This document shows, in pieces, positions 632 to 42,574 of a stretch of DNA of 64,000 nt. A program made the translations under genes and the position numbers. Origin of the DNA: a virus. Its lineage: Duplodnaviria > Heunggongvirae > Uroviricota > Caudoviricetes. The DNA is taken from positions 69,979-133,978 of IMG/VR virus record IMGVR_UViG_3300021387_000091; one strand, written 5' to 3'. The notes under the pieces were generated by a model that saw nothing but the letters and a program-made list of their open reading frames with translations, searched no databases and was not told the DNA's origin. Numbering within the stretch: the stretch's first letter is position 1; the number at the start of each line of letters is the position of its first letter.

Positions 632-2512
632 CTAGTTTCATAATGATAATTGTTGACAATTTAATTTGTCAATAATTTTATAAACTTCGTGTATATAATA
701 TTGATAATTTATATGGCGTTCTGAAATATCTTTATTATCAAATGTATTGTATAATGTTACAGCAGAATCCGAACACAAATTTGTAATTCTTTCTCTAACA
801 TCACCGTTTAACTTATATTTCATTAATCTTTTTCCATTAGTAGACATATAATATCTATTAATGTGTCTAACTTCTTGACCTCCATATTCTACGTGAAAAT
901 CTTTAGCGACCTTTTGAAATGTGCAAAATTTCAGAATATCATTACAAGATTTAATTGTAATTTCAGGATCAATATCCTCAACAAAATATTTATTTAGAGC
1001 CTCCGGAATTATTAAAGGCGCTAAACCCTTTCCAAGTTGAGGTTCATCAATAAACATTCCTTTCTTTTTTATAAGATTAGGATTCTTAGATTCACTTCAA
1101 CCCTTTTTTACGCCAATATAATCATTAATTGCATATTGATAAAACCGTTCAAATTCCTCACGTTCCAATTCCAATCCGGTGAGTTTTTCTCACCAATCTT
1201 TTACTTCATTTACTTTTGGAATTAAAGATTTATTTATTGTATAACACAATCCATCTGTATTTGATTGAACAATTTTACCACCAGCAAGAGCAATGCTTTC
1301 TGCGTACATTAATAATAGTAATTGACCATTAATTCTAATTCTTAAGACCGCTTTTGGATCATATACTCAAGAGAATTCAGATTGAAGATTTCCGGTTAAA
1401 CCATTAATTGCAAGTTTTAGTGTTTCATTCTTTAATTTATTACCGCTTCTCTTGGCTTCAATTCTTTCATCACGAATGTTTTTATAAATTCTAACAAAAG
1501 CTTCGCCCAAATGTTGCGGGAATATGTTATTCTGAATAATAATTGACGGATATAGCGACGCAACATCGTCGTCAAATATCGCAATATCATCATCAGCTTT
1601 AAATATTTCTGGAACATTAACACTATGCAATCCACCCATTCCAAATGTGTGTTCAACACCATTTAAAAAGAATTTTCTTTCAAAAGAATTATCGTTTGGA
1701 TCGGCGCAATGTTGTTTTAAATCATCAAGAAGTTGTTTTAATTCTGGAGTTTTAAATTCAATGTATGGAAATATAATTTCTCCAAAACACAAATTATCAC
1801 AAGGGCTTCTTAAATCTTTAATTTGATTTCATGTTAATCCTGTTTCTTTAAGATATCTATCTTTAAGAATTTCCATTCCAAGATTAACTCCATCTTTATT
1901 CATTACATCTATACCATATTCTTCTTCAATTGCAATTCTTAAATCAATGTCCTTTTTACATCTAGTTAAGAATTCTTCAGTACTTTCAACATCATTAAGA
2001 TTATATGCGTTTTCTTTATCAATATCTGACTCTGGCAATGGTGCATCAAAATCACCATCATATTCTTCAACATTTTTATAATTCATTGTTACTTGAAGTG
2101 CTTTTAAACTAGGTCTTAGTTTTTTAGACCATTTCATAGCCAATAAATCTAAATCATTATAAAGATTTGCATATTTATATTTACTTCAAGAAGCAGATGT
2201 TGTTGAATTAATAATTAAATCACTAAACTGTTTAAGCTCCATTGTTATTACTCAAACAGGTTTAGTAATTAAGCGTTTATAATTAATTAAAATATAAGAT
2301 ATAATTGGTTTATCATAATGTAAACTATTATAACCTACAAAATATATATCTTTTCATAAAAACAATCTTGCTATTTTCGGCATATCGTTTCTTCGATTAG
2401 ATATTTCGTATGTAGCATGATTACCAGATTCAGTATTTTTAATAGTAACACTAAAATAATTTACAAATACTTCAATATCATATACAAACGCTGGTAAATT
2501 TTTAATCAGCAT
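632..2512 (-). CDS. polB: Family B DNA polymerase, read through 8 in-frame TGA codons
   Basis: ORFs 638-1057, 1367-1792, 1829-2143 plus upstream segment share one frame and are separated only by TGA (2354, 2252, 2186, 1829, 1367, 1190, 1097, 638); YDIEVF (Exo I), FVGYNSLHYD (Exo II), DxxSLYPSII (motif A), NTDG (motif C); ATG 2510-2512, TAG stop 632-634. Confidence 0.8.
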
Positions 2513-3338
2513 TTAAACTTATACCCTTTTGTGATGCTACTAATTCTAGTTTCTCTTTAAGAGATTCCCACTTTTGTATATGATATTCTAGATCTTGATC
2601 CAAAAGAAGTAAAATCTTATCTCGAAGCAAAGTAATAACATCAGTAGTCATAGTAGAGAACTTTGGACGGCTCTCTATTCTTAGAAGAGAACGAAACTCT
2701 CCATATGTTAAACCTTTAGAGTTAAAATGAATTTCTACATTAGGATTAAGAAAAAGACGCTCTTTAATAACATCTTTCCTATTTCTAAATTTTCCATTTG
2801 CGTCATAATCGGTTAAATCTTTTTTCTCTTGATCTGTCAGTCATATTCCAAGAGAAAGAATAAATTTATCAGATAATAGCTTTTTATTAAATGCAGGTAG
2901 TGCATCCAAACAAGCTGAAAGCAAATAATCAATTGTGATTCTTCCATACCCTTCTGATAATCCAGAAAAAATCTTTGAAACAGGATCAGAATTACTAATA
3001 TTATTTGCTTGCTTATGAGCACTTATATAATCGAGCAGATCTTTATTTGTTTTAAGACCCTCAACATTACAATCATATAAAATATGACGAAGTAACAATT
3101 CTGTGTTTGCACAATCCCACATTTTTCTTACTTGGTCACGCTTTCTTTGTACGCCAGGATGATAAGGATCTTTATTATTAAGCATTTCCAACACATGAGA
3201 ATATGCATGCTGAAGTTGTTCTGGAGTTAAATCCATCATTCGCACTTCTTTCCCATTTGACATTTTTCATACCCAACGATTAATATCGTTTTCCCTATCA
3301 TCAAACGCTTTAGTTAATTTATCTGCTAAATCACTCAT
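2502..3338 (-). CDS. hypothetical protein (2 in-frame TGA)
   Basis: ORF 2841-3263 extends through TGA at 3267 and 2841; ATG 3336-3338, TAA 2502-2504. Confidence 0.5.
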
Positions 3339-3341
3339 AAT

Positions 3342-3653
3342 CTAAAAATTAAAATCTTTTTTGTTTATTATTTGTTGTTGTTTTATAAAATTAATTAGGT
3401 AACATACAGTATAGTTATATATTTCCTTACTACCCGTAGACGGTTTATAATAACATTCGCCTGCATTTACATATTCACATTCAATATATCCAGTATCACC
3501 AATTTGTGGTTTATCGCAGTTTCAATTTGGAGCTAAGGTTGTGGTAATATATCTTAGCAGGCTATTATTTTGTTCATCTAAATTCTTAAATACATATATT
3601 GTATATTGACCTGGTTGTATGGCTACTACTTCTCCAAAGTATGTTGTTCGCAT
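3342..3653 (-). CDS. hypothetical small protein (1 in-frame TGA)
   Basis: Manual translation from ATG 3651-3653 to TAG 3342-3344; absent from track because of TGA. Confidence 0.3.
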
Positions 3654-4138
3654 AACGTTAATACATCGGCATTGTTTTTAACGGCCGCTAGTGCTCTACA
3701 ACATATATGATCAATAGTATCCAACTTTTTTAAAAGATAATGGAAGTTATACCAATCTTTATCTCCAAAAGCAATATCAATTAAACTTATTAACTTACTT
3801 TCAAAGGTATCTTCCATATCAGATAGCATTTTAAACGGAGTTACTGTGTCATCAAAAGATATAATTCCGGGAATAGTAAATTCTGGAACAGCGGCACTAT
3901 TTTTTATTAATTGTTCAATTAAACAATGCTTTATTTCTTCGCAGGATTTATATAAAGTTTTAAAAAACTTTTTATTGTTAATTAAACCATTTTCACAAAA
4001 ATAGAATTTAGCCGAACTAATTAAAGCTAATTTATCTATTTCAAACTGAATTAAATCTATAAAACCTTTATAAAGGCTTAATGACATTTTTCCTTGTTCG
4101 TTGCTTTGTTCTTCTTGGTTGGTCTTGAATTTCATCAT
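3626..4138 (-). CDS. hypothetical protein
   Basis: ORF track 3626-4141; ATG at 4136-4138, TAG stop. Confidence 0.55.
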   Translation of the reverse strand: MMKFKTNQEEQSNEQGKMSLSLYKGFIDLIQFEIDKLALISSAKFYFCENGLINNKKFFKTLYKSCEEIKHCLIEQLIKNSAAVPEFTIPGIISFDDTVTPFKMLSDMEDTFESKLISLIDIAFGDKDWYNFHYLLKKLDTIDHICCRALAAVKNNADVLTLCEQHTLEK

Positions 4139-4263
4139 CAAGTTGCATTATTGTAAAATATGAACCATTTTTAGAATAGTTAAATTTACGTACAATTTTA
4201 TCTGATTCAAACTCTTTTGAGTCAACTAGATGATAATACTTTAATCCATCTACCTTATCTCAT

Positions 4264-4701
4264 TTATATTGTTCAATTACGTATTTCAATTATATAATAA
4301 GTTTTATGAAAATTAGTATTATATTGACGTTCTATTAAACTATACATATCATCTGAAATTGAAAATTCATGATCTCTAACCATAAATCTTATTTCAAGAC
4401 TATCAGAAGTTGTAAAATATTTTAATAAATCATCATCGTTTATAAATATAGTATTATCATAAACTATACTGTAAACTTCATTTAGTTCTATTTCTAATTC
4501 ACCTCGTTTATAAGTATCGTATAAATCAAATACTTTACAAAGTTTATCATTAAATGCAATATCCTCTGGATCTAAATGATCTAAATCAGCATACCATTTA
4601 TTTCCAAGTCGTTTTGCTTTAATTCTATAGTCCATATATCTTTTGGTAAATTGTAACACTGTGCTGCAAATGTACATCATTTGTCAGCTTCCTCGTTTCA
4701 T
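4264..4701 (-). CDS. hypothetical protein (TGA-containing)
   Basis: ORF 4273-4680 extended through TGA at 4684 and 4273; TAA stop 4264-4266. Confidence 0.45.
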
Positions 4702-5026
4702 CTATTATTATTATGACCTTTTACTCACTGCATTGTAACATTATGTTTTGATAATAATTCAACTAACTCAAATCATAAATCTAAGTTTTTCTTAGTTAAA
4801 TCATTATTTTTTATTCAAGATTCAGCAGAACCTGTAACAATGCTTTGAACCACATATTGAGAATCGGAAATAATTGTTAAGTTGCATCTTTCTTTAAAAT
4901 ATTTTAAAGTTTCAATTACAGCTTTTATTTCCATTCTATTATTTGTTGTATCGGTCATACCCTGATAAAGTCTAGCAATTACATTTTCATTTTCATCTAA
5001 AATGATGCTTGCTCAACCTCCAGCAT

Positions 5027-5389
5027 TTAAACTTGCTTGATAGGATCCATCTGTATAGCAAATAAATCTTTGCATTGTTCTGTAAGATATTGTATAATAT
5101 AACAAAAAGCCTCTTGATCCGATTTATCCAATCCAACATCTTCCATTAGATCAAATGTAGCATGACACAATTCATGAACCAAAACACTAACATCAGAACC
5201 AGATTGCATTCAAATTCAAGAAGTACAACAATAATGCATACAAATAGCATCTGTAATATCTGGATTAAATGTTGCTTCATCTAATCCTTCTATATCTTTT
5301 AAATAATCTTGAAATTCATATGGATCTCCTATCAAAATATAAACAGATTGTCTATAAATTGGAATTTTAATTTCGTGAATCAGTAACAT
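5027..5389 (-). CDS. SprT/Wss1-like zinc metalloprotease (HExxH), 2 in-frame TGA
   Basis: ORF 5027-5209 contains HELCH motif; frame continues upstream through TGA 5210 and 5216 to ATG 5387-5389. Confidence 0.45.
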
Positions 5390-5603
5390 CTGCTTTTTGG
5401 TAATCTACATATGGTGCAAGTTGATACGCTGTAAATTGTCCAAATAATTCTCCTTTATTAGAATCTATTGCTTTATTAATTAACTCAAACAATTCATCAG
5501 GATTTTCAGTTTCAATATATCCTTTTAAACTAACTTGATACACCGTAAATTCGTTTTGTTTCATTTTCAAATATTTCACTAACATATTTTTGTGAAATAT
5601 CAT
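5367..5603 (-). CDS. hypothetical protein
   Basis: ORF track; TAA stop; overlaps neighbours in other frames. Confidence 0.35.
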   Translation of the reverse strand: MIFHKNMLVKYLKMKQNEFTVYQVSLKGYIETENPDELFELINKAIDSNKGELFGQFTAYQLAPYVDYQKADVTDSRN

Positions 5604-8565: not shown

Positions 8566-9672
8566 TTAAAATCCAATTTTATTTGTTCTCTTTTTCTCTC
8601 CATACTCAGTTTTATCCGCATTATATATTTCAGCAAGAGTCATAGGCTTAATTTCAGTGAGACCTAAATTATATTTTTCATTTAAAGTTTCAACTTTATC
8701 TTTAGTTAACTCTTTAAACTCATACTTTGCATAGCATCTTCCTTTACGAAGTAAAGCTTGGTCAATATCCTTAACGTTTGCATTAAATGTGCAAATAAAT
8801 TTAATATTCATAATATCTGATAGTAAACCATCAGACATATTAAGAATGTTACTAATTGCACCATTAAACATATTAACGCTTCTATCAGTTAATACTTGTT
8901 CGCAGTCTTCAAGAATAAAAACAGAATTTGCATTATCAATCATAAAAGATACAAAATCAGGATCTCCTAATCTACTAGTTAAAGAAGTTGGAACAATTAT
9001 ATAGTTTTTAGGGTATTTATCGCATAAATGTCTCAATAAAGAACTTTTGCCAGTTCCAGGAGAACCATAAAACAATACAAGACCGCTTTCCCTAGAATCT
9101 AGAAACGTAATTAAATCTTTATAAACAGGCATAAAATCATCATTATACGTTTCATTGATATTTATATCAACTTTTTTTATTTTAGATTCTATAGTATAAT
9201 AAGATCCATCCGAATATCCAACAAGATTTGCTGTTGCTTCTTTAGACTCCTTAACTCTTTTAGGCAAACCATCCCATATTTGTTTTAACAGCTCTTCTAT
9301 TTCCGATTCTGTATGTTCTTCTGGAAAATATTTCACAGATATAGAATTAAGATCTATAACAAATATATACTCGTTAGATGTAATAACATTAATAGCAGAA
9401 CCAGAATCGGATATATTTAATGTTGTACCATTAGAATATTCTTGATCTGTAGCACCACCAACAAGACTGTACTTACTTGTTGTTCTCTTAATAAAACTTA
9501 TATCCGGAATTAAACTATACAAAACTTCAGATGTAATTTTTTCTAGATCGCAATGTTTTTCCTCTTCGTTAAAAGTAAGCATTAAAGAATTAGGTACACA
9601 ATTGTACTTAAAAACAAAATATTTAGAAGCAATAAAAACACCGCTTTCAGTGAAACAATCGATTAACTCCAT
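8566..9672 (-). CDS. AAA-family ATPase
   Basis: Walker A GSPGTGKS, Walker B ILEDCE, sensor-2 LLRKGR; immediately upstream of GroEL. Confidence 0.75.
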   Translation of the reverse strand: MELIDCFTESGVFIASKYFVFKYNCVPNSLMLTFNEEEKHCDLEKITSEVLYSLIPDISFIKRTTSKYSLVGGATDQEYSNGTTLNISDSGSAINVITSNEYIFVIDLNSISVKYFPEEHTESEIEELLKQIWDGLPKRVKESKEATANLVGYSDGSYYTIESKIKKVDININETYNDDFMPVYKDLITFLDSRESGLVLFYGSPGTGKSSLLRHLCDKYPKNYIIVPTSLTSRLGDPDFVSFMIDNANSVFILEDCEQVLTDRSVNMFNGAISNILNMSDGLLSDIMNIKFICTFNANVKDIDQALLRKGRCYAKYEFKELTKDKVETLNEKYNLGLTEIKPMTLAEIYNADKTEYGEKKRTNKIGF

Positions 9673-9833
9673 AATTTCTTAATATAAATAAATAAACAAA
9701 TCCAGTTTATAATAGGTACTAAACACAATAATGCCATAAACTGCGGATAATTAAAATACCCACGTTTATAACATTCATTCATTAAAATAAATGATAAAAG
9801 CATGGGTATGGTATAAATAAATAATATTTCCAT
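9663..9833 (-). CDS. small membrane protein
   Basis: ORF 9663-9860 trimmed to ATG at 9833 to avoid tRNA-Asp; two hydrophobic segments. Confidence 0.3.
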   Translation of the reverse strand: MEILFIYTIPMLLSFILMNECYKRGYFNYPQFMALLCLVPIINWICLFIYIKKLWS

Positions 9834-9835
9834 AG

Positions 9836-9911
9836 CGGTGTATATGGGATTTGAACCCATGATCTTTAGCGTGACAAGCTAACATCCTAGACCAGACTGA
9901 ACGAATACACC
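9836..9911 (-). tRNA. tRNA-Asp(GTC)
   Basis: Manual cloverleaf: acceptor GGTGTAT/ATACACC, anticodon arm TTAGC-TTGTCAC-GCTAA, T-arm ATGGG-TTCAAAT-CCCAT. Confidence 0.85.
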
Positions 9912-9921
9912 ATCTCTTTCT

Positions 9922-10137
9922 TTATTTCTTGGAAAATAAATACTTATAAAGCTTATATATTCCAAAACCTTCAGCGCAAATATTAACTCCGGCAACCCAA
10001 CCATAAAAACTTCCAATTGCTTTAAGAGCAACAGCGTTTCATACTCCAGCTGCAGAAATAATAGCGACCATAGCTAAAAGTATTAAACTAGCAACTTTAC
10101 CAAACGTAATTAATGTTTCTTTATTAGCTTCAGTCAT
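9922..10137 (-). CDS. small 2-TM protein with charged C-terminus (holin-like), 1 TGA
   Basis: Manual translation MTEANKETLITFGKVASLILLAMVAIISAAGV(W)NAVALKAIGSFYGWVAGV...KLYKYLFSKK. Confidence 0.3.
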
Positions 10138-10209
10138 ATAAAATACAAGTTTAAATTAATCAAATCTCTAAAAATTGTGATTCTATAGAATCAACATCTA
10201 AATTATTAG

Positions 10210-10302
10210 CAGGGGCTGCAGGACTCGAACCCACATATCCGGTTTTGGAGACCGGCGTTGGCGGTTTTGAAGACCGCTGTGTTACCATTACACCAAACCC
10301 CT
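10210..10302 (-). tRNA. suppressor tRNA, anticodon UCA (reads UGA); tRNA-Trp-derived with tandem duplicated anticodon arm
   Basis: 93 nt: AGGGGTT TG GTGT AATGGTA ACAC A GCGGT-CTTCAAA-ACCGC CAACG CCGGT-CTCCAAA-ACCGG ATAT GTGGG-TTCGAGT-CCTGC AGCCCCT G; second hairpin equals E. coli tRNA-Trp anticodon arm (CCA). Confidence 0.8.
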
Positions 10303-10372
10303 ATAAAATGATACTTATTTAAAAATGATCCACAGTCATTCGCGTAAACCATTCCGCCAATTCGCCAAAATG

Positions 10373-10400
10373 TCGGCAAATGTGGGACTCGAACCCACAA
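10373..10400 (-). pseudogene. tRNA 3' fragment (T-arm plus acceptor strand)
   Basis: GTGGGTTCGAGTCCCACATTTGCC has no matching 5' half; near-copy of the suppressor tRNA T-arm. Confidence 0.4.
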
Positions 10401-10434
10401 TTTATTTTAATTTTGTAAGTATCATAAGATTGTT

Positions 10435-10770
10435 TTAATTTATTAATTTACGACGATACGCAATAGTTGTAAATGCTTCATATTCATTTACACTAGGTAT
10501 TATATCTGTATCACTCCAAATCATCATTTCAGAATAAAGTTCATATCCAGCTGTTACTCCAACAAATCCATCTTCTAACATATAAACGTTAGTTGCAACA
10601 GAAAACCATCTATAGCTATGGATGTTTTGGCAATTAGAAACACATTTAATTTCTTCCCAATCATCTGGATACTCTGTAGAAAAAGCATCTTCAAATTCTG
10701 ACAAAGAATTAATGGAATAAAGAGTTAATAAATTCTTGAACTTTTCAATGAATTGATTAATTGATATCAT
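10435..10770 (-). CDS. hypothetical protein
   Basis: ORF track; TAA stop. Confidence 0.55.
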   Translation of the reverse strand: MISINQFIEKFKNLLTLYSINSLSEFEDAFSTEYPDDWEEIKCVSNCQNIHSYRWFSVATNVYMLEDGFVGVTAGYELYSEMMIWSDTDIIPSVNEYEAFTTIAYRRKLIN

Positions 10771-11890
10771 AACGTATTTTTCCTATAAATTCGTTTAAAA
10801 CTTTAGCATTACAATAACTCATTGTAGAACGTATTGCTGCAACAAATTGAGAAGTCCATTCAGAAAGTGTATATTCAATCGGAATCCAATATTCTTTACC
10901 TTCAGAATGTTTTATTTCAGTTTTACCCATTTCTTTTTGGGCACGCTCTGTTGACATTCCATAATACATTCTTCCAGGTTTAAATACATAATCCTTTATT
11001 TCCACAATTCTTGCTAAACGATTTTCACTAGCAGGTGTAAATATACTATTTATGTTTTTAACAGCCTTTTCAATTATTTCTCCAGCAGCTTCTTGTGATT
11101 GAGCAAATATTTTACCACACATTACATAATCTGCACCAATAGCTAAAGCCACAATTATGTCTCTTATAGAATTACAACCGCCATCATATACAATATATGG
11201 TACAGACCTATACTTTCCTAATGGATAAGAATCATACGATTTAGCAACATATTCTTGTCTATATCTTGTTTCTCTTAACATATACAAAGCATTACGTCCA
11301 ATACCAGTTAAATCGTTTGTTGCACAGCCATTACCAGAACCAATCATTATTCGTACATAATCAATACCGGCTTTAGCATATTCATCATATGCTAATGGCT
11401 CCGCAATATTTCCAGCCATAAGAATTAGTTTGTTATCAAATTTATGTTTTGCAAATTTACAAAGTTCAAGTAATTTTTTCATATGTCCATTTGCAATATC
11501 AATACAAATAAAAGTTTCAGATGTTAATGTATCTGTATTAATAGCAAAACATTCAAATTCTTCTAAACCCATTGCAATCCAAACCTGTTCAAATGCAAGT
11601 TTTATTCTAATATCATATGGAACAGTTCTTGGTATTATTGGAGTAATTTTATTTTTACTAAACTCCAAATAATTTTTATCGTTAACAACACATGACATTG
11701 GTGCAGTAAAAAGAGGTAAATGTGCGGAATCTAAATTCCAATCAAGTTTCTCTTTGGACCAAATAGCATTATAATACGGAGAGCATTCAGATCTATGTTC
11801 TATATTAGTTGTTATAGATGGAATTAATTGTATTTCATCAAAATTAGTCAAATACTTCTTCATTTTTATAAATTTTTGTAAAATCATCAA
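10757..11890 (-). CDS. IMPDH/GMP reductase-family protein (GuaC-like, no CBS domain)
   Basis: GIDYVRIMIGSGNGC and DGGCNSIRDIIVALAIGADYVMCG resemble IMPDH/GuaC catalytic-Cys loop and phosphate-binding motif. Confidence 0.7.
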   Translation of the reverse strand: MMILQKFIKMKKYLTNFDEIQLIPSITTNIEHRSECSPYYNAIWSKEKLDWNLDSAHLPLFTAPMSCVVNDKNYLEFSKNKITPIIPRTVPYDIRIKLAFEQVWIAMGLEEFECFAINTDTLTSETFICIDIANGHMKKLLELCKFAKHKFDNKLILMAGNIAEPLAYDEYAKAGIDYVRIMIGSGNGCATNDLTGIGRNALYMLRETRYRQEYVAKSYDSYPLGKYRSVPYIVYDGGCNSIRDIIVALAIGADYVMCGKIFAQSQEAAGEIIEKAVKNINSIFTPASENRLARIVEIKDYVFKPGRMYYGMSTERAQKEMGKTEIKHSEGKEYWIPIEYTLSEWTSQFVAAIRSTMSYCNAKVLNEFIGKIRYDIN

Positions 11891-12035
11891 AAGTTATTAT
11901 GTCTGAAATATCAAGCCAATTTAATTGTTTTGATTTATATGAAGTAACAAATAAATCATTTCCAATAATTTTCTTGATAATATATTTTATATATCCTTCC
12001 TTTGTTGGATAAAAGACAATATCTCCGACTTGCAT
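11844..12035 (-). CDS. hypothetical protein
   Basis: ORF track. Confidence 0.35.
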   Translation of the reverse strand: MQVGDIVFYPTKEGYIKYIIKKIIGNDLFVTSYKSKQLNWLDISDIITFDDFTKIYKNEEVFD

Positions 12036-12319
12036 GGTTTATTTAAAAATAAAACTTTATTATTTTGTACTATAAATGTTTTAGTATTTGGCCTTGTTAT
12101 AATAAACCTAAAATCTAAAAATTCATCGTCTGATAAACGAACTGTTACAATAACATGTTTTTTATTAATATCAAACACCCAGCCTTCTAATAATGATTCG
12201 TCTGAATTTAAAATCCAAACAGTATCTAAAAAATCTAAGTCTGCTAGAGTTTTCTTGGGTTTATCTATTTTATTATACTTCGGCACTATTATTTTTTTAA
12301 GATTATCTAAAAAAGACAT
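11987..12319 (-). CDS. hypothetical protein
   Basis: ORF track. Confidence 0.45.
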   Translation of the reverse strand: MSFLDNLKKIIVPKYNKIDKPKKTLADLDFLDTVWILNSDESLLEGWVFDINKKHVIVTVRLSDDEFLDFRFIITRPNTKTFIVQNNKVLFLNKPCKSEILSFIQQRKDI

Positions 12320-12338
12320 AATTTTTTATTTTAGTTAG

Positions 12339-12411
12339 GGTGTTCTGAGAGAATCGAACTCTCCTATCTAGAGCCACAATCTAGCCGACTAACCGCTATC
12401 GTAAGAACACC
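12339..12411 (-). tRNA. tRNA-His(GTG)
   Basis: G-1:C73 extra pair, anticodon arm CTAGA-TTGTGGC-TCTAG, T-arm GAGAG-TTCGATT-CTCTC. Confidence 0.85.
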
Positions 12412-13032
12412 AGCGTCTATTCTACAAAATAAATAGTAGAATTAATATCTGTAATAAATTATCGATTAGACTTCCAATAATAGTACAAATCTAATCTAAC
12501 CAATCTCAATTTTTCAAGACCATTCTTTTAATGGTTTATCTCCGTTTGCATAATGACAATCTTTAAATTCCATTCCAGATACAATTCCTAATCCAAATAA
12601 AACTGTAAACATAAATCTCAAAGGAATTACTAAAAGAAAATGTTTATATCGAATCAATTGATACTATTTTTTAATCACTCATTTTTTTTATTTATTACAT
12701 TGTAAGTATTCAAATAATTAATCCGAATAATCTCAAAAATCAATTTTCTTTTCTCGATGATTCTTTTTTTCTGGATGTTTTGTTTCTTTTTGTTGTTTTT
12801 TCTTTTTACTACGAACTTTTTCAAAATTAGTCTCGTCTGACATATGTTCTAGTTCGTAAAATGAAACTTTAGGCATTAAAAATTAAAATTAATAAAACGT
12901 AAAAAGACACTGAAAGTCACTTTTACTTACAGGCCACTAATTAACGTGTTAGAACGGAATCAATTTCGTAGACTCACCGGTACGTCCAGCGTACTTTTAA
13001 AATACATGATTTTAGCAGTTAATAAAAGTTAA

Positions 13033-13049
13033 TATTGTAAGTGTCTTAA
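13033..13049 (+). repeat. motif AATATTGTAAGTGTC (family M1)
   Basis: Recurs at 22063-22078, 26265-26281; variant at 26041-26057. Confidence 0.5.
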
Positions 13050-13280
13050 TCTATTATAATTGTTATAAATCTTTATTCACGTGTGTAGATATTTTTTACC
13101 GATATAAAATATCAAACGTTAAAATACATCCATAAAGGGCAAAAAGTCACGAAGCATACTTGTAGTCATTAGATTCTCTAACTCCAATAATTCATTATCC
13201 ACTTAGTTGGAAGCTCTCGGTGGGAATATAAGTTGTTGAATAGAATCTTATAATCTATACACGATTTTAATTTATAACAG

Positions 13281-13359
13281 TGGTGGAGTTGAAGGGACTC
13301 GGACCCTCAAAAATCCTGCCGTGCAAAGGCAGTGCGGTTACCAATTTTGCTACAACCCC
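13281..13359 (-). tRNA. tRNA-Ala(TGC), CCA encoded
   Basis: G3:U70 pair, anticodon arm CTGCC-TTTGCAC-GGCAG, 3' ...CTCCACCA; D-stem poorly paired. Confidence 0.75.
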
Positions 13360-13604
13360 AAAATCACCTTTTATACTAACCCCAGAGGTGTAACTGTGCC
13401 AACCTACGATTTGGAGGAATAGTATGCTTCTATGAGAGGCCTTTCCCATCTTCGTTCCCTGCGCGCTTAGGGCTCATTAAGTAGTTTGTTTGAAGATTTA
13501 TGGAAAAGCTACAATTACACGCTTGTAGCACACGTAGAGCTTACGTTCTCTCTATAACGATAGTAGTATATAGGATTACGATTCTTCCGTCGAAGACCAG
13601 TGAG

Positions 13605-13777
13605 TAGCGGGAGCAGGATTCGAACCTGCGACCTTCAGCTTAGACACTACGTTTGGACTCGAACCAAAATCCCGAGACTTAGGCTACGTGTACCTTACCA
13701 TTGGTCGACGTAGTGTGGTTCGTTTCAGTGAACCATGCTGTATTGAGGCTGACAAGCTACCACTGCTCTACCCCGCT
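13605..13777 (-). tRNA. class I tRNA (Arg UCU/CCU-like) split by ~100-nt intervening sequence in the anticodon loop
   Basis: 5' half AGCGGGG TA GAGC AGTGGTA GCTT G TCAGC (13777-13748) and 3' half GCTGA AGGTC GCAGG-TTCGAAT-CCTGC TCCCGCT A (13639-13605) pair as acceptor and anticodon stems; insert carries its own T-arm TTTGG-TTCGAGT-CCAAA inside an 8-bp helix. Confidence 0.5.
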
Positions 13778-13784
13778 ATTTTAA

Positions 13785-13991
13785 CTAAAGTTTATATTTC
13801 TTATGAAGTAACTTTCCACACTCTTCACATTGGAGAATATAATTTATTTTTCTACCTATTGGATATTTTTCACCATAATTACCCCATATTTGGGTTTCCT
13901 GTTCTTTAATAATTTTCCATTTATGTTTATGGAAAATGAATCGAATAAAATTTTTTAATTTGTTTAAAATATCTCTCATAATAAATAGCAT
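13785..13991 (-). CDS. small Cys-containing protein between tRNAs
   Basis: ORF track 68 aa, CEECGK motif; lies between two tRNA genes. Confidence 0.3.
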   Translation of the reverse strand: MLFIMRDILNKLKNFIRFIFHKHKWKIIKEQETQIWGNYGEKYPIGRKINYILQCEECGKLLHKKYKL

Positions 13992-13999
13992 TAATTATG

Positions 14000-14084
14000 T
14001 GGGAATGGTAGGATTCGAACCTACTGCGTTTCATAGTGTCGGATTTACAGTCCGATGCCCATCCACCATCTGAGCAGCATTCCC
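14000..14084 (-). tRNA. tRNA-Tyr(GTA), class II
   Basis: 85 nt; acceptor GGGAATG/CATTCCC, anticodon arm TCGGA-CTGTAAA-TCCGA, long variable arm. Confidence 0.85.
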
Positions 14085-19402: not shown

Positions 19403-19655
19403 AATTGTTATCCTATAGACTTTTTATTCTATAGTTCTTATACTTCTTTTTTGTATAAGTTCAGCATATATTTTCATCTACTTATTTTAGTTAAGATGGC
19501 GGATACTCGTGGAAGGATTATATTTATTCACCTTCTATGCGTTACAATGTCAAATAGCCTTTCGAAATCTATTTGCTTATCTCGGTATTAACATCACAGT
19601 CTTCACCGATTTTACCCGCTTCGATATATGATTTCTCATATAAAGGACGAAATTC

Positions 19656-20582
19656 TAAATAACGATTGAATTTTCTTTCAAGATATATATTAGAATCTTC
19701 ATAAAGATATTTTACACAATTTCAAGCTTTTCTATCTGTTGCAATTAATACATGTGTTACAGTATTTCCATTTTCTGGATGAAGTAAACGTATATGTTGA
19801 TATCCATTATTAAAATATTCAGCACATTTATTAAGAAAATCTTTTGTTCCAATAATACTCATTTCTATAGCAGAATGATCTGCGTTGGAATAAGTAATAC
19901 ATCCATCTCCATCAAAGTACCCTCTAATAAAATGTCTTATTAAAGCTGGATCTTTAAATATATTTTCATTTGGAAATTTAATAGTTAACGATTTTCTTGG
20001 AGTACAACCATAAGAATTTAATACTTCAACCATATGTTTATTATCAAAAGACATTCTGCAAAGATCTCCTGTTGGTAAACTCTGATACCTCATTTTGTAA
20101 GTATATCCAAGAAAATCCATAAATTTCTGCAAATGTGCTTTATCTTTAATACTAAGATTTACTGTAATTTTTGGTCTAGTAGAATCAATTCCTCCATCTG
20201 CATACAAAAATCCAAGTCAATAAGCTTTTTCTTCTGTATCAATAGAATCAAAAATATTATAATTTATATTGTTAATTCTATCTTTTCTAATTACTTGAAT
20301 GTTTGTTTGTTTTAATCATCTAGCAAGTGTTGCAACACCAACATTTAAAATAGATGATATTTCTTTAAGAGTTTTTCCCTGATTCTTATAAAGATCAATC
20401 ACTGTGTTTATATCTAAACTAATATTTCTTCTTTTTATTTCTACATTATTTAAACGTAAGTAATTCCCAATTGTTTGAGGACTTACTTTTAACTCTGTAG
20501 AAATATCTTTAATTGTTTTTCCAGACTTATAGATTTCTATAACGTTTGCTTTTTGTAAAAATTCAATCATTCGTTTTTGCAT
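19656..20582 (-). CDS. LAGLIDADG homing endonuclease with N-terminal HTH domains (3 in-frame TGA)
   Basis: ORFs 20316-20582 and 19722-20207 share a frame and join through TGA at 20316 and 20217; motifs Y(W)LGFLYADGG and FIRGYFDGDGC; TAG stop at 19656. Confidence 0.65.
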
Positions 20583-22078: not shown

Positions 22079-22239
22079 TTTGAGGCTCCTCCGGATCCCG
22101 AGACCGGTACTAGGGGTTACAAATCCCTTATTTTACCTGTTAAACTAAAGAGCCGTTAATGATACTTATTTAAACATATAAAGCCATTAATTTTTTTTGT
22201 TTTATAAAGTATTATAAGTATCATAAAATATTATAAAAG

Positions 22240-23469: not shown

Positions 23470-24147
23470 TTATAGTCCAAATTTTTTTCTATATTTTCTT
23501 ATTGTTGCTTCAGAAACATTATATTTTTGTGCGATTCATAAATTGGATCTACCTTGCGCAATATATTGTTTTATATTTTCAACTTCACTATCTCAATCTA
23601 CAATTTTTCGATGTTTTGAAGCACAAGATAAACATAAACCAGAATTTGTTTTAGTTTCTCTTCCACACTCTGAACAATAATATTTTATCTTTTCCGTTTT
23701 ATTCGCATTACCGCAATAATTTTCTGTTTGCGAATGACAATTTGGACATAGCATTTGTAAATTACTTAATTCATTATTTGTTTCGTCTCCATCTATATGA
23801 TGTAGCTGACAAATAATAGGTTTATTTAATCATTCTGTTAATCCACAGCATTCACACTTATTTTGTTTTAATCCAGCATTGATTAATTTTTCTTTAAGTT
23901 TGGAAGATTTTATACAACTTCCATTAATAAGATATTCTTCAACTGATTTACATCTGCTTTTTCCTTTATCTTTAGACACAAATGTAAAATGAGATGTGTC
24001 TAGCCCATATTCTTTTATTTTATTTTTAAGGGTGTCTGAATTTCTACCTCTAACAGGAATTTCAAGTTCACGTAATGTATCTGCATAACAGAAATTATTT
24101 GCCACTGCTTTTTGTATGCGTTCTAAAGATCAATCATATTTTTTCAT
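23470..24147 (-). CDS. HNH homing endonuclease with C-terminal HTH (4 in-frame TGA)
   Basis: ORF 23830-24105 continues through TGA; CECCG...ICQLHHIDGDETNN...LCPNCHS HNH motif; ATG 24145-24147, TAA 23470-23472. Confidence 0.6.
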
Positions 24148-42457: not shown

Positions 42458-42488
42458 TTCAATTAAAGTATATATAATTTGTGTTTAG

Positions 42489-42574
42489 TGACTCTAGAGA
42501 GACTCGAACTCTCGACCCCCTGATTAAAAGTCAGGTGCTCTCTAGCCTTTCGGAACCAACTGAGCTATAGAGTC
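42489..42574 (-). tRNA. tRNA-Lys(TTT) with ~11-nt insertion in the D-loop
   Basis: 86 nt; GACTCTA TA GCTC AGTTGG[TTCCGAAAGGC]TAGA GAGC A CCTGA-CTTTTAA-TCAGG GGGTC GAGAG-TTCGAGT-CTCTC TAGAGTC A. Confidence 0.7.

Follow-up and report, generated by a model that had tools for sequence, protein, structure and literature searches.

The 64,000-nucleotide (nt) stretch of caudoviral DNA analysed here (positions 69,979 to 133,978 of IMG/VR record IMGVR_UViG_3300021387_000091; called the window) contains a 93-nt tRNA gene in which two anticodon-like hairpins follow each other between the D arm and the T arm. The first hairpin (arm 1) occupies the normal anticodon position and carries the anticodon UCA, while the second (arm 2) lies in the position of a variable arm and copies the CCA anticodon loop of tRNA-Trp. 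Genes of the same five-arm design recur in many uncultured phages, and in this family the extra CCA arm is, as far as sequence comparison can tell, a stable and selected feature. With moderate confidence we propose that arm 1 would decode UGA, while arm 2 would act as a pseudo-anticodon arm through which an unchanged tryptophanyl-tRNA synthetase (TrpRS) could still accept the tRNA as its substrate.

Read 5′ to 3′, the gene consists of AGGGGTT TG GTGT AATGGTA ACAC A GCGGT CTTCAAA ACCGC CAACG CCGGT CTCCAAA ACCGG ATAT GTGGG TTCGAGT CCTGC AGCCCCT G, which corresponds to a 7-base pair (bp) acceptor stem, D arm, UCA arm, 5-nt linker, CCA arm, 4-nt linker, T arm and G73 (Table 1). The 3′ CCA end is not encoded and CTA comes next. 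All sequence elements that an earlier note on this DNA had listed for the two hairpins were found, on the minus strand. The acceptor stem comprises the pairs A1-U72, G2-C71, G3-C70, G4-C69, G5-C68, U6·G67 and U7-A66, and a single nucleotide (A, 10278) separates the D stem from arm 1, like position 26 of an ordinary tRNA. ARAGORN reports the gene at 10209-10302 (minus) as "tRNA-SeC(tca)". The Rfam model RF00005 gives a full-length match (1-71) of 53.8 bits (E = 9e-9; gathering threshold 29 bits), in which the UCA hairpin takes the place of the anticodon arm and the second hairpin is treated as an insertion of 23 nt into the variable region. When ARAGORN was run with and without the insertion, as had been proposed, each single-arm version was a good class-I tRNA: removal of arm 1 and its linker leaves a perfect 73-nt tRNA-Trp(cca), and removal of arm 2 leaves a class-I tRNA(tca). 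The five-arm cloverleaf is the minimum-energy structure in RNAfold (-31.3 kcal/mol), although the folding energy is not distinctive (z = -1.3). RNAalifold, applied to 26 window-type sequences, over which the D arm is almost invariant, arrives at the five-arm cloverleaf on its own and shows double-sided changes at two stem pairs of the extra arm, 15 at one and 8 at the other. The support for the predicted structure is comparative, not energetic.

Bacterial TrpRS recognizes the CCA anticodon, G73, A1-U72 and the acceptor pairs G2-G5 (PMC9976931). The acceptor stem and discriminator are Trp-like, as noted earlier, with A1-U72, G2-C71 to G5-C68 and G73 all present, while C34-C35-A36 is missing from the anticodon arm, which has UCA, and is found in the second arm only. 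Each of the 25 canonical tRNA-Trp(CCA) genes examined has the arm-2 loop, CUCCAAA, as its anticodon loop. The two halves of the gene each match annotated tRNA-Trp genes in a deposited phage collection, in which no phage covers 80% or more of the gene, so that there is no cultured host to work with. A 37-mer of the double arm has no exact match among JGI metagenome contigs, and when the DNA of window positions 9000-14000 was compared with 50,697 deposited phage genomes, 4 of them matched, weakly and over short stretches (1-3% of the query).

Table 1. Features of the tRNA(UCA) gene, of TGA-bearing window genes and of related loci on other contigs (window coordinates unless a contig is given)
Feature	Position	Strand	Remarks
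Whole tRNA gene	10210-10302	minus (5′ end 10302, 3′ end 10210)	93 nt; ARAGORN, Rfam RF00005
Acceptor stem, 5′ strand AGGGGTT	10296-10302	minus	pairs with AGCCCCT (10211-10217); sequence, ARAGORN drawing
D arm GTGT-AATGGTA-ACAC	10279-10293	minus	4-bp stem, 7-nt loop, class-I type
Arm 1, decoding anticodon arm GCGGT-CUUCAAA-ACCGC	10261-10277	minus	anticodon UCA at 10268-10270; Rfam covariance model alignment
Inter-arm linker CAACG	10256-10260	minus	5 nt, single-stranded
Arm 2, putative pseudo-anticodon (variable) arm CCGGT-CUCCAAA-ACCGG	10239-10255	minus	CCA at 10246-10248; 5-bp stem, 7-nt loop
3′ linker ATAT	10235-10238	minus	4 nt; matches the 4-nt variable loop of phage tRNA-Trp(CCA) (alignment)
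T arm GTGGG-TTCGAGT-CCTGC	10218-10234	minus	sequence, Rfam alignment, ARAGORN
Discriminator G73	10210-10210	minus	bacterial Trp discriminator (PMC9976931)
TGA-bearing replication genes needing tRNA(UCA)	632-5400	minus	neighbouring ORFs also have TGA
DNA-polymerase-like ORF	635-2512	minus	8 in-frame TGA, 2 TGG
RNase H-like ORF	4584-5075	minus	6 TGA, 1 TGG
Homing-endonuclease-like ORF	19569-20582	minus	3 TGA, 0 TGG
Homing-endonuclease-like ORF	23470-24147	minus	4 TGA, 0 TGG
Five-arm tRNA(UCA), Phoenicibacter-labelled metagenome-assembled genome (MAG)	L099 4597-4692		chromosomal contig with housekeeping genes
Five-arm tRNA(UCA), Coriobacteriia MAG	L194 4024-4119		chromosomal contig with housekeeping genes
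Class-I tRNA(UCA), A73, directly upstream of phage TrpRS gene	L024 4430-5533 (contig also L379, L380)		TrpRS of 328 aa, 39% identical to E. coli TrpRS

In the window TGA is, on the sequence evidence, read as Trp. The proposal had already been made in the earlier note and is borne out by in-frame TGA codons that align with conserved Trp and by the presence of a Trp-type tRNA with a UCA anticodon, the combination that marks the opal suppressors of code-4 phages. The minus strand of the window carries all of its 18-19 tRNA genes, among which UCA is the sole anticodon matching UGA; a separate tRNA-Trp(CCA), whose absence had also been stated, is not among them (ARAGORN, Rfam). The 50 in-frame TGA codons are clustered in replication and homing-endonuclease genes, and 3-4 of the 6 TGA positions in the RNase H-like open reading frame (ORF) align with conserved Trp of solved RNase HI structures. 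The use of TGA is mosaic, with about 45 ORFs at 5.5-57 kb having TGG and zero in-frame TGA. Genes for TrpRS and RF1 were not found in the window by tblastn.

These observations bear on the amino acid that the tRNA would carry. The identity proposed by ARAGORN, tRNA-Sec, can claim the UCA anticodon, the long extra arm and G73, but has a negligible chance of being right: the acceptor/T branch is 7/5 and not 8/5 (13 bp), the D arm has a 4-bp stem and 7-nt loop and not 6 bp and 4 nt, the Sec-like tRNAs recovered in the same scan (see below) form a separate class with no UCCA loops, and TGA is frequent and aligned with Trp. Very improbable, too, is a suppressor that accepts Ser or behaves otherwise like class II in the manner of allo-tRNAs, such that the long arm, G73 and G2-C71 recruit SerRS and UGA means Ser. 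SerRS indeed senses the size of the long arm and not its sequence, and tRNA-Ser has G73; however, TGA aligns with conserved Trp, not Ser, and alternates with W in the Coriobacteriia described below, the D arm is of class I, the extra arm is flanked by 5 and 4 unpaired nt compared with 1-3 nt in the tRNA-Leu genes of the window (loops of 3-4 nt), and SerRS recognition would leave the conserved loop sequence unexplained. The gene has the long paired variable arm of class II tRNAs, while their 3-bp D stem with enlarged loop and their tight 1-2-nt flanks are lacking; a class-II D arm with a tight junction is found in the relatives L222, L246 and L253. The 8/4 or 9/3 acceptor/T branch of allo-tRNAs (PMC5389517) is likewise absent from the 7/5 window gene. 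The tRNA-Sec, allo-tRNA and tRNA-Ser identities were therefore rejected on the basis of acceptor/T geometry, the D arm and TGA = Trp.

The search for the double-arm design in other phages, which had been recommended, yielded about 100 uncultured phage contigs with about 70 distinct sequences, and the independence of these contigs rules out a sequencing or assembly error at the window locus. In a first scan of IMG/VR with the exact pattern of both loops, 13 contigs were recovered, nine of which have a canonical tRNA-Trp(cca) gene 3-300 nt from the five-arm tRNA. In a second scan of viral contigs the UCA arm and the T loop were fixed and the variable region was left free, giving 98 contigs with 85 unique genes: UCCA is present in the variable-arm loop in 43 of 45 genes with a 7/5 branch and a long variable region and in none of 22 Sec-like genes (8/5 branch), while the question does not apply to 18 class-I genes with a short variable loop. 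A third scan, with relaxed anticodon stem and TCCAA forced, brought in about 30 more unique genes; their scaffolds are different again and include class-II-type D arms. The pooled set comprises 68 unique 7/5, G73, long-arm tRNA(UCA) genes, and in 63 of them a 7-nt loop is flanked by at least four of five pairs. The consensus of these mimic loops is N-U-C-C-A-A-A, in which the first position is G in 33, C in 18 and U in 12 genes and the last two A are found in 61 and 56, respectively. By contrast, stem pairs 1-4 of arm 2 each occur as 4-8 pair types. That the stem turns over while the loop stays fixed indicates that the loop is selected for its sequence. The motif is placed on 49 different D regions, some of class-II type, which points to convergence; the 3′ linker has 4 nt in 48 of 63 genes, and the 5′ linker varies from 2 to 7 nt.

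These genes also show a link with recoding. Near mimic tRNAs the coverage by long ORFs rises from a median of 0.47 to 0.73 when TGA is taken as sense (median gain +0.15), compared with a median gain of +0.04 in the TAG control, whereas near Sec-like tRNAs the gains are +0.06 (TGA) and +0.05 (TAG). Long-armed suppressors of other types were not seen among the loci examined, the sole CUA tRNA being class I. A few tRNA(UCA) genes with G1-C72 and U73 (L061, L095, L034, L226), which are not Trp-like, have UCCAA or ACCAG in the extra-arm loop. A tmRNA lies inside the tRNA clusters of four phage contigs with five-arm tRNAs (L003, L005, L011, L012).

As to its origin, the window-type gene looks like a tRNA-Trp whose anticodon arm has been duplicated in tandem, over 22-23 nt: in an alignment with canonical phage tRNA-Trp(CCA) genes, their anticodon arm and 4-nt variable loop fall on arm 2 and its 4-nt linker, and the UCA arm with its linker forms a 23-nt insertion. 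The earlier note had described the gene as a captured duplication intermediate. The duplication stands for the window-type group, in which the alignment reveals the tandem repeat, while "intermediate" does not fit an arm that appears selected over about 70 sequences and 49 D regions. A frozen intermediate, with arm 2 as an unselected relic of the duplication in a tRNA-Trp gene, would explain both this alignment and the likeness of the 23-nt difference to a tandem repeat unit, and yet is a most doubtful proposition. An unselected hairpin should lose its loop as fast as its stem, whereas here the stem is fully turned over and UCCAAA is fixed in 63 of 68 genes; moreover, the motif is also found on class-II-type scaffolds that cannot be derived from this duplication, and the arm has been retained beside a canonical tRNA-Trp(CCA) in nine of 13 loci and in UGA = Trp bacteria. 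The genes on L222, L246, L253 and L250, with class-II-type D arms, 1-nt linkers and 6-bp arm stems, look like independent gains of the CCA loop.

If the loop of arm 2 is selected, it may be read either by the ribosome or by a protein. The genuine anticodon loops of 571 unique tRNAs encoded at the same loci have C or U at position 32 in 561 cases and G in 4 (0.7%). In the mimic loop G32 occurs in 33 of 63 genes, and the stem is often closed by U·G or C·A. The frequent G32 and the often non-Watson-Crick closing pair indicate that the constraint on arm 2 lies on U33-A38 and not on features that the decoding center requires. The relaxed position 32 thus fits recognition of arm 2 by a protein better than ribosomal decoding. 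This speaks against a tRNA with two anticodons that would alternate between two cloverleaf registers, reading UGA with arm 1 and UGG with arm 2, a possibility to which we give little credence. The junctions are canonical on both sides (1 nt between D stem and arm 1, a 4-nt class-I-like loop between arm 2 and T stem), either arm can be deleted to leave a perfect class-I tRNA, and in the window the arm-2 loop is a perfect CUCCAAA and no tRNA-Trp(CCA) is present. However, U34 tRNAs of UGA = Trp systems normally read UGG too, so that the second anticodon would be redundant. In addition, a separate tRNA-Trp(CCA) gene adjoins in most relatives (nine of 13 loci), G32 in half of the family and the frequent non-Watson-Crick closing pair are very rare in decoding loops, and the 1-nt linkers of the class-II-type members bar the alternative register. 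Two folds had been put forward for the gene in the earlier note: the five-arm tRNA(UCA) is supported by Rfam and RNAfold, and the tRNA-Trp(CCA) fold, conceivable for the window gene with its CUCCAAA loop, is unlikely in the half of the family with G32.

A parallel family was found among tRNAs with the anticodon UAU. The first case was a 91-nt tRNA-Ile(UAU) (L250, 370-460) with GAU in the loop of a hairpin in the variable region. A tRNA(UAU) scan of viral contigs (L260-L379), with the variable region free, gave 66 unique A73 genes with long variable regions among the matches listed, and in 48 of these 66 the extra arm has a 7-nt loop with GAU at its centre. The loops follow C/U-A-G-A-U-N-A/G (CAGAUUA, CAGAUGG, UAGAUGG and others) and have covarying stems and a 5-6-nt 3′ linker. 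A second subgroup of tRNA(UAU) has loops of the form CUNNCAA, in which GAU is missing. GAU is the anticodon of standard tRNA-Ile that IleRS expects, while UAU reads AUA, and charging by TrpRS as well as by IleRS depends on the anticodon. The rule common to both families, as it emerges from the genes, is that the extra arm carries the cognate anticodon of the synthetase.

Outside phages, a scan of bacterial genomes, one per species, retrieved mostly tRNA-Sec with a chance TCCA in the variable-arm stem, and at least four true cases. Two of them are chromosomal genes of Coriobacteriia (L099 and L194; Table 1), and on both contigs TGA and W alternate between orthologues. The extra-arm loop of these tRNA(UCA) genes is GUCCAAA; their acceptor stem differs (ACCTCCT), while the D arm is identical to that of the phage type, which raises the question of phage-to-host transfer. 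The contigs match the UGA = Trp Eggerthellaceae of a recent report, which mentions a tRNA-Trp(UCA) gene and is silent on its structure. Natural pseudo-anticodon arms could be a general way to split codon reading from synthetase recognition (CCA for TrpRS with UCA, GAU for IleRS with UAU), used in phages and at least one UGA-reassigned bacterial lineage; we regard the chances of this as even.

The two sets of genes are also informative about who reads arm 2. Instead of a synthetase, arm 2 might be bound by an enzyme that modifies anticodon loops, by a phage protein or by a host anticodon nuclease, against which it would be a decoy or shield, or the arm might stabilize the fold. The data indicate selection for a U-C-C-A-A-A loop, whichever factor reads it, and the relaxed position 32 would suit any protein. 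Such another role for the arm is nonetheless unlikely. GAU on tRNA(UAU) repeats the logic, and what the two families have in common, the anticodon that the synthetase expects, suggests synthetases as readers; free-living UGA = Trp bacteria have kept the arm, and a function in phage defence is less natural there; and genes for candidate factors linked to the arm were absent from the loci examined.

With a synthetase as reader, arm 1 in the normal anticodon position would pair with UGA on the ribosome, and probably with UGG as well, while arm 2 would show U33-C34-C35-A36-A37-A38 to the host TrpRS, which we infer to be its reader. The tRNA would remain a good TrpRS substrate in spite of its changed decoding anticodon. 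Two ways of recognition are conceivable. TrpRS could dock the variable-arm loop directly; the class Ic enzymes TyrRS and TrpRS are dimers that bind tRNA across the subunits from the variable-arm side, leaving one anticodon-binding domain free. Alternatively, the arms could be exchanged, so that arm 2 would transiently take the anticodon position. Such an exchange may be possible because both canonical junctions are kept, namely 1 nt after the D stem and a variable loop of class-I length before the T stem. It would suit the monomeric IleRS too, yet is impossible for the class-II-type members with 1-nt linkers.

Several points weigh against recognition of arm 2 by TrpRS. When a tRNA docks in the canonical way, the tip of its variable arm lies far from where the enzyme binds the anticodon. 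IleRS is a monomer and approaches its tRNA from the opposite side, so that a single static docking mechanism cannot cover both families. Class-I Trp-like phage tRNA(UCA) genes without the arm occur with no TrpRS gene in the available flanks (L074, L079, L026, L033, L083), and two of the three scans imposed part of the motif. E. coli TrpRS has been reported to charge plain UCA suppressors; of 31 phage tRNA(UCA), 9 showed activity in E. coli extract, and Trp was inserted by each of the 13 that were analysed (PMC12636597). Since armless UCA suppressors can be charged with Trp, arm 2 is not universally required. Furthermore, the engineered arm described below needed HisRS fused to an additional anticodon-binding domain (PMC7590224).

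Phages that encode TrpRS offer a comparison. Among 33 phage TrpRS loci a tRNA(UCA) is present in one, a class-I gene with A73 directly upstream of the synthetase gene (L024; Table 1). This locus fits a phage "code-change module", in which an own TrpRS and the extra arm would be alternative solutions; the co-occurrence of TrpRS with an armless tRNA(UCA), however, rests on this single case, which is a further weakness of the argument. An RF1-like fragment lies near another class-I A73 tRNA(UCA) (L035). Three TrpRS-encoding contigs of 104-482 kb have tRNA-Trp(CCA) genes of 84-86 nt with long variable arms, the loops of which are not anticodon copies (L408 5905-5990, L410 4731-4814, L412 2697-2780).

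The window gene resembles several known systems without being identical to any of them. Like the opal-suppressor tRNA(UCA) of code-4 gut phages (Borges et al., bioRxiv 10.1101/2021.08.26.457843; Seki et al., PMC12636597), it is phage-encoded and has a UCA anticodon, a Trp-type acceptor and G73; in both cases TGA stands for Trp in a subset of genes and charging by the host TrpRS is presumed. The tRNAs in those papers are treated as ordinary suppressors, for which an extra arm is not described, whereas the window gene has a conserved CCA stem-loop in the variable-arm position. Closest in design are the engineered tRNAs with a pseudo-anticodon arm (Mukai 2020, PMC7590224), in which a variable-arm hairpin with the cognate anticodon loop is meant to recruit the synthetase to a tRNA with a suppressor anticodon and can raise charging. 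A variable-arm loop that copies the cognate anticodon loop is likewise found in the window gene, as CUCCAAA. The engineered versions are synthetic, based on 9/3 allo-tRNA scaffolds with His/GUG, and had a modest effect, while the window family is natural, 7/5 and of Trp type, with an unmodified enzyme presumed. Canonical bacterial and phage tRNA-Trp(CCA) share with the window gene the acceptor stem, G73, the D and T arms and the loop CUCCAAA, but lack the inserted 23-nt UCA arm with linker and the changed decoding anticodon.

Class II tRNAs (Ser, Leu, Tyr, Sec), allo-tRNAs and the nematode nev-tRNAs also have a long paired arm between the anticodon and T arms, and in tRNA-Ser, nev-tRNAs and bacterial tRNA-Tyr the extra arm decides the choice of synthetase. 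In these tRNAs, however, recognition depends on how large the arm is and how it is oriented, and the loop of 3-5 nt is unconserved, in contrast to the fixed 7-nt anticodon-loop copy of the window family, and the window gene differs from class II tRNAs by its class-I D arm and long linkers. Mimics of anticodon arms are known outside tRNAs as well: in the E. coli thrS mRNA operator and in viral tRNA-like structures, a hairpin copy of the cognate anticodon loop binds the matching synthetase. Such mimics are mentioned in PMC9976931 and PMC10870377. They belong to mRNAs or viral genomes, where they are used for regulation or for charging of the 3′ end, while the window arm lies inside a decoding tRNA with a different anticodon. 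A natural case of this arm was not found in the literature, where only the engineered precedent was met, although subscription journals were mostly beyond the search and an earlier description is possible; a 2020 review of non-canonical natural tRNAs contains nothing similar.

How the suppressor tRNAs of recoded phages are charged in a host with the standard code is a stated open question in the main survey of such phages, and a conserved pseudo-anticodon arm would be a concrete and easily testable answer. If true, a copy of the anticodon outside the anticodon position would be a new class of natural tRNA identity element, and codons could be reassigned once a tRNA gene had undergone no more than a duplication of 22 nt and a single point mutation, so that a stop or rare codon would be captured without first altering the synthetase. 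The presence of the arm in Coriobacteriia and of the GAU arm in tRNA(UAU) suggests that the principle is general. In practice, ARAGORN mislabels five-arm genes as "tRNA-SeC", by which the annotation of genetic codes can be misled, and five-arm tRNAs could be ready scaffolds for genetic-code engineering, where the synthetic version had modest success.

The remainder of the window is phage-like, with 32% G+C, a GroEL-like chaperonin, an IMPDH/GMP-reductase-like protein and many tRNAs. Directly upstream of the tRNA(UCA) gene lies a tRNA-His-like element in circularly permuted order (10320-10398, minus), which has a T arm and 3′ acceptor strand (GTGGG TTCGAGT CCCAC ATTTGCC G) and, 7 nt further on, the matching 5′ acceptor strand, D arm and GUG anticodon arm. 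ARAGORN does not call the element as encoded but recognizes tRNA-His(gtg) when the halves are rejoined in the usual order, and Rfam gives a weak sub-threshold match to the 3′ half only (19.9 bits). A 20-mer of the element is absent from IMG/VR. It may be the relic of a tandem pair or a true permuted gene. Two other tRNA genes of the window, both on the minus strand, deserve mention: the 19th, at 22083-22154, scores 38.5 bits in Rfam and is not reported by ARAGORN, and a tRNA-Lys(ttt) at 42488-42574 has a 14-nt hairpin inserted in its D loop.

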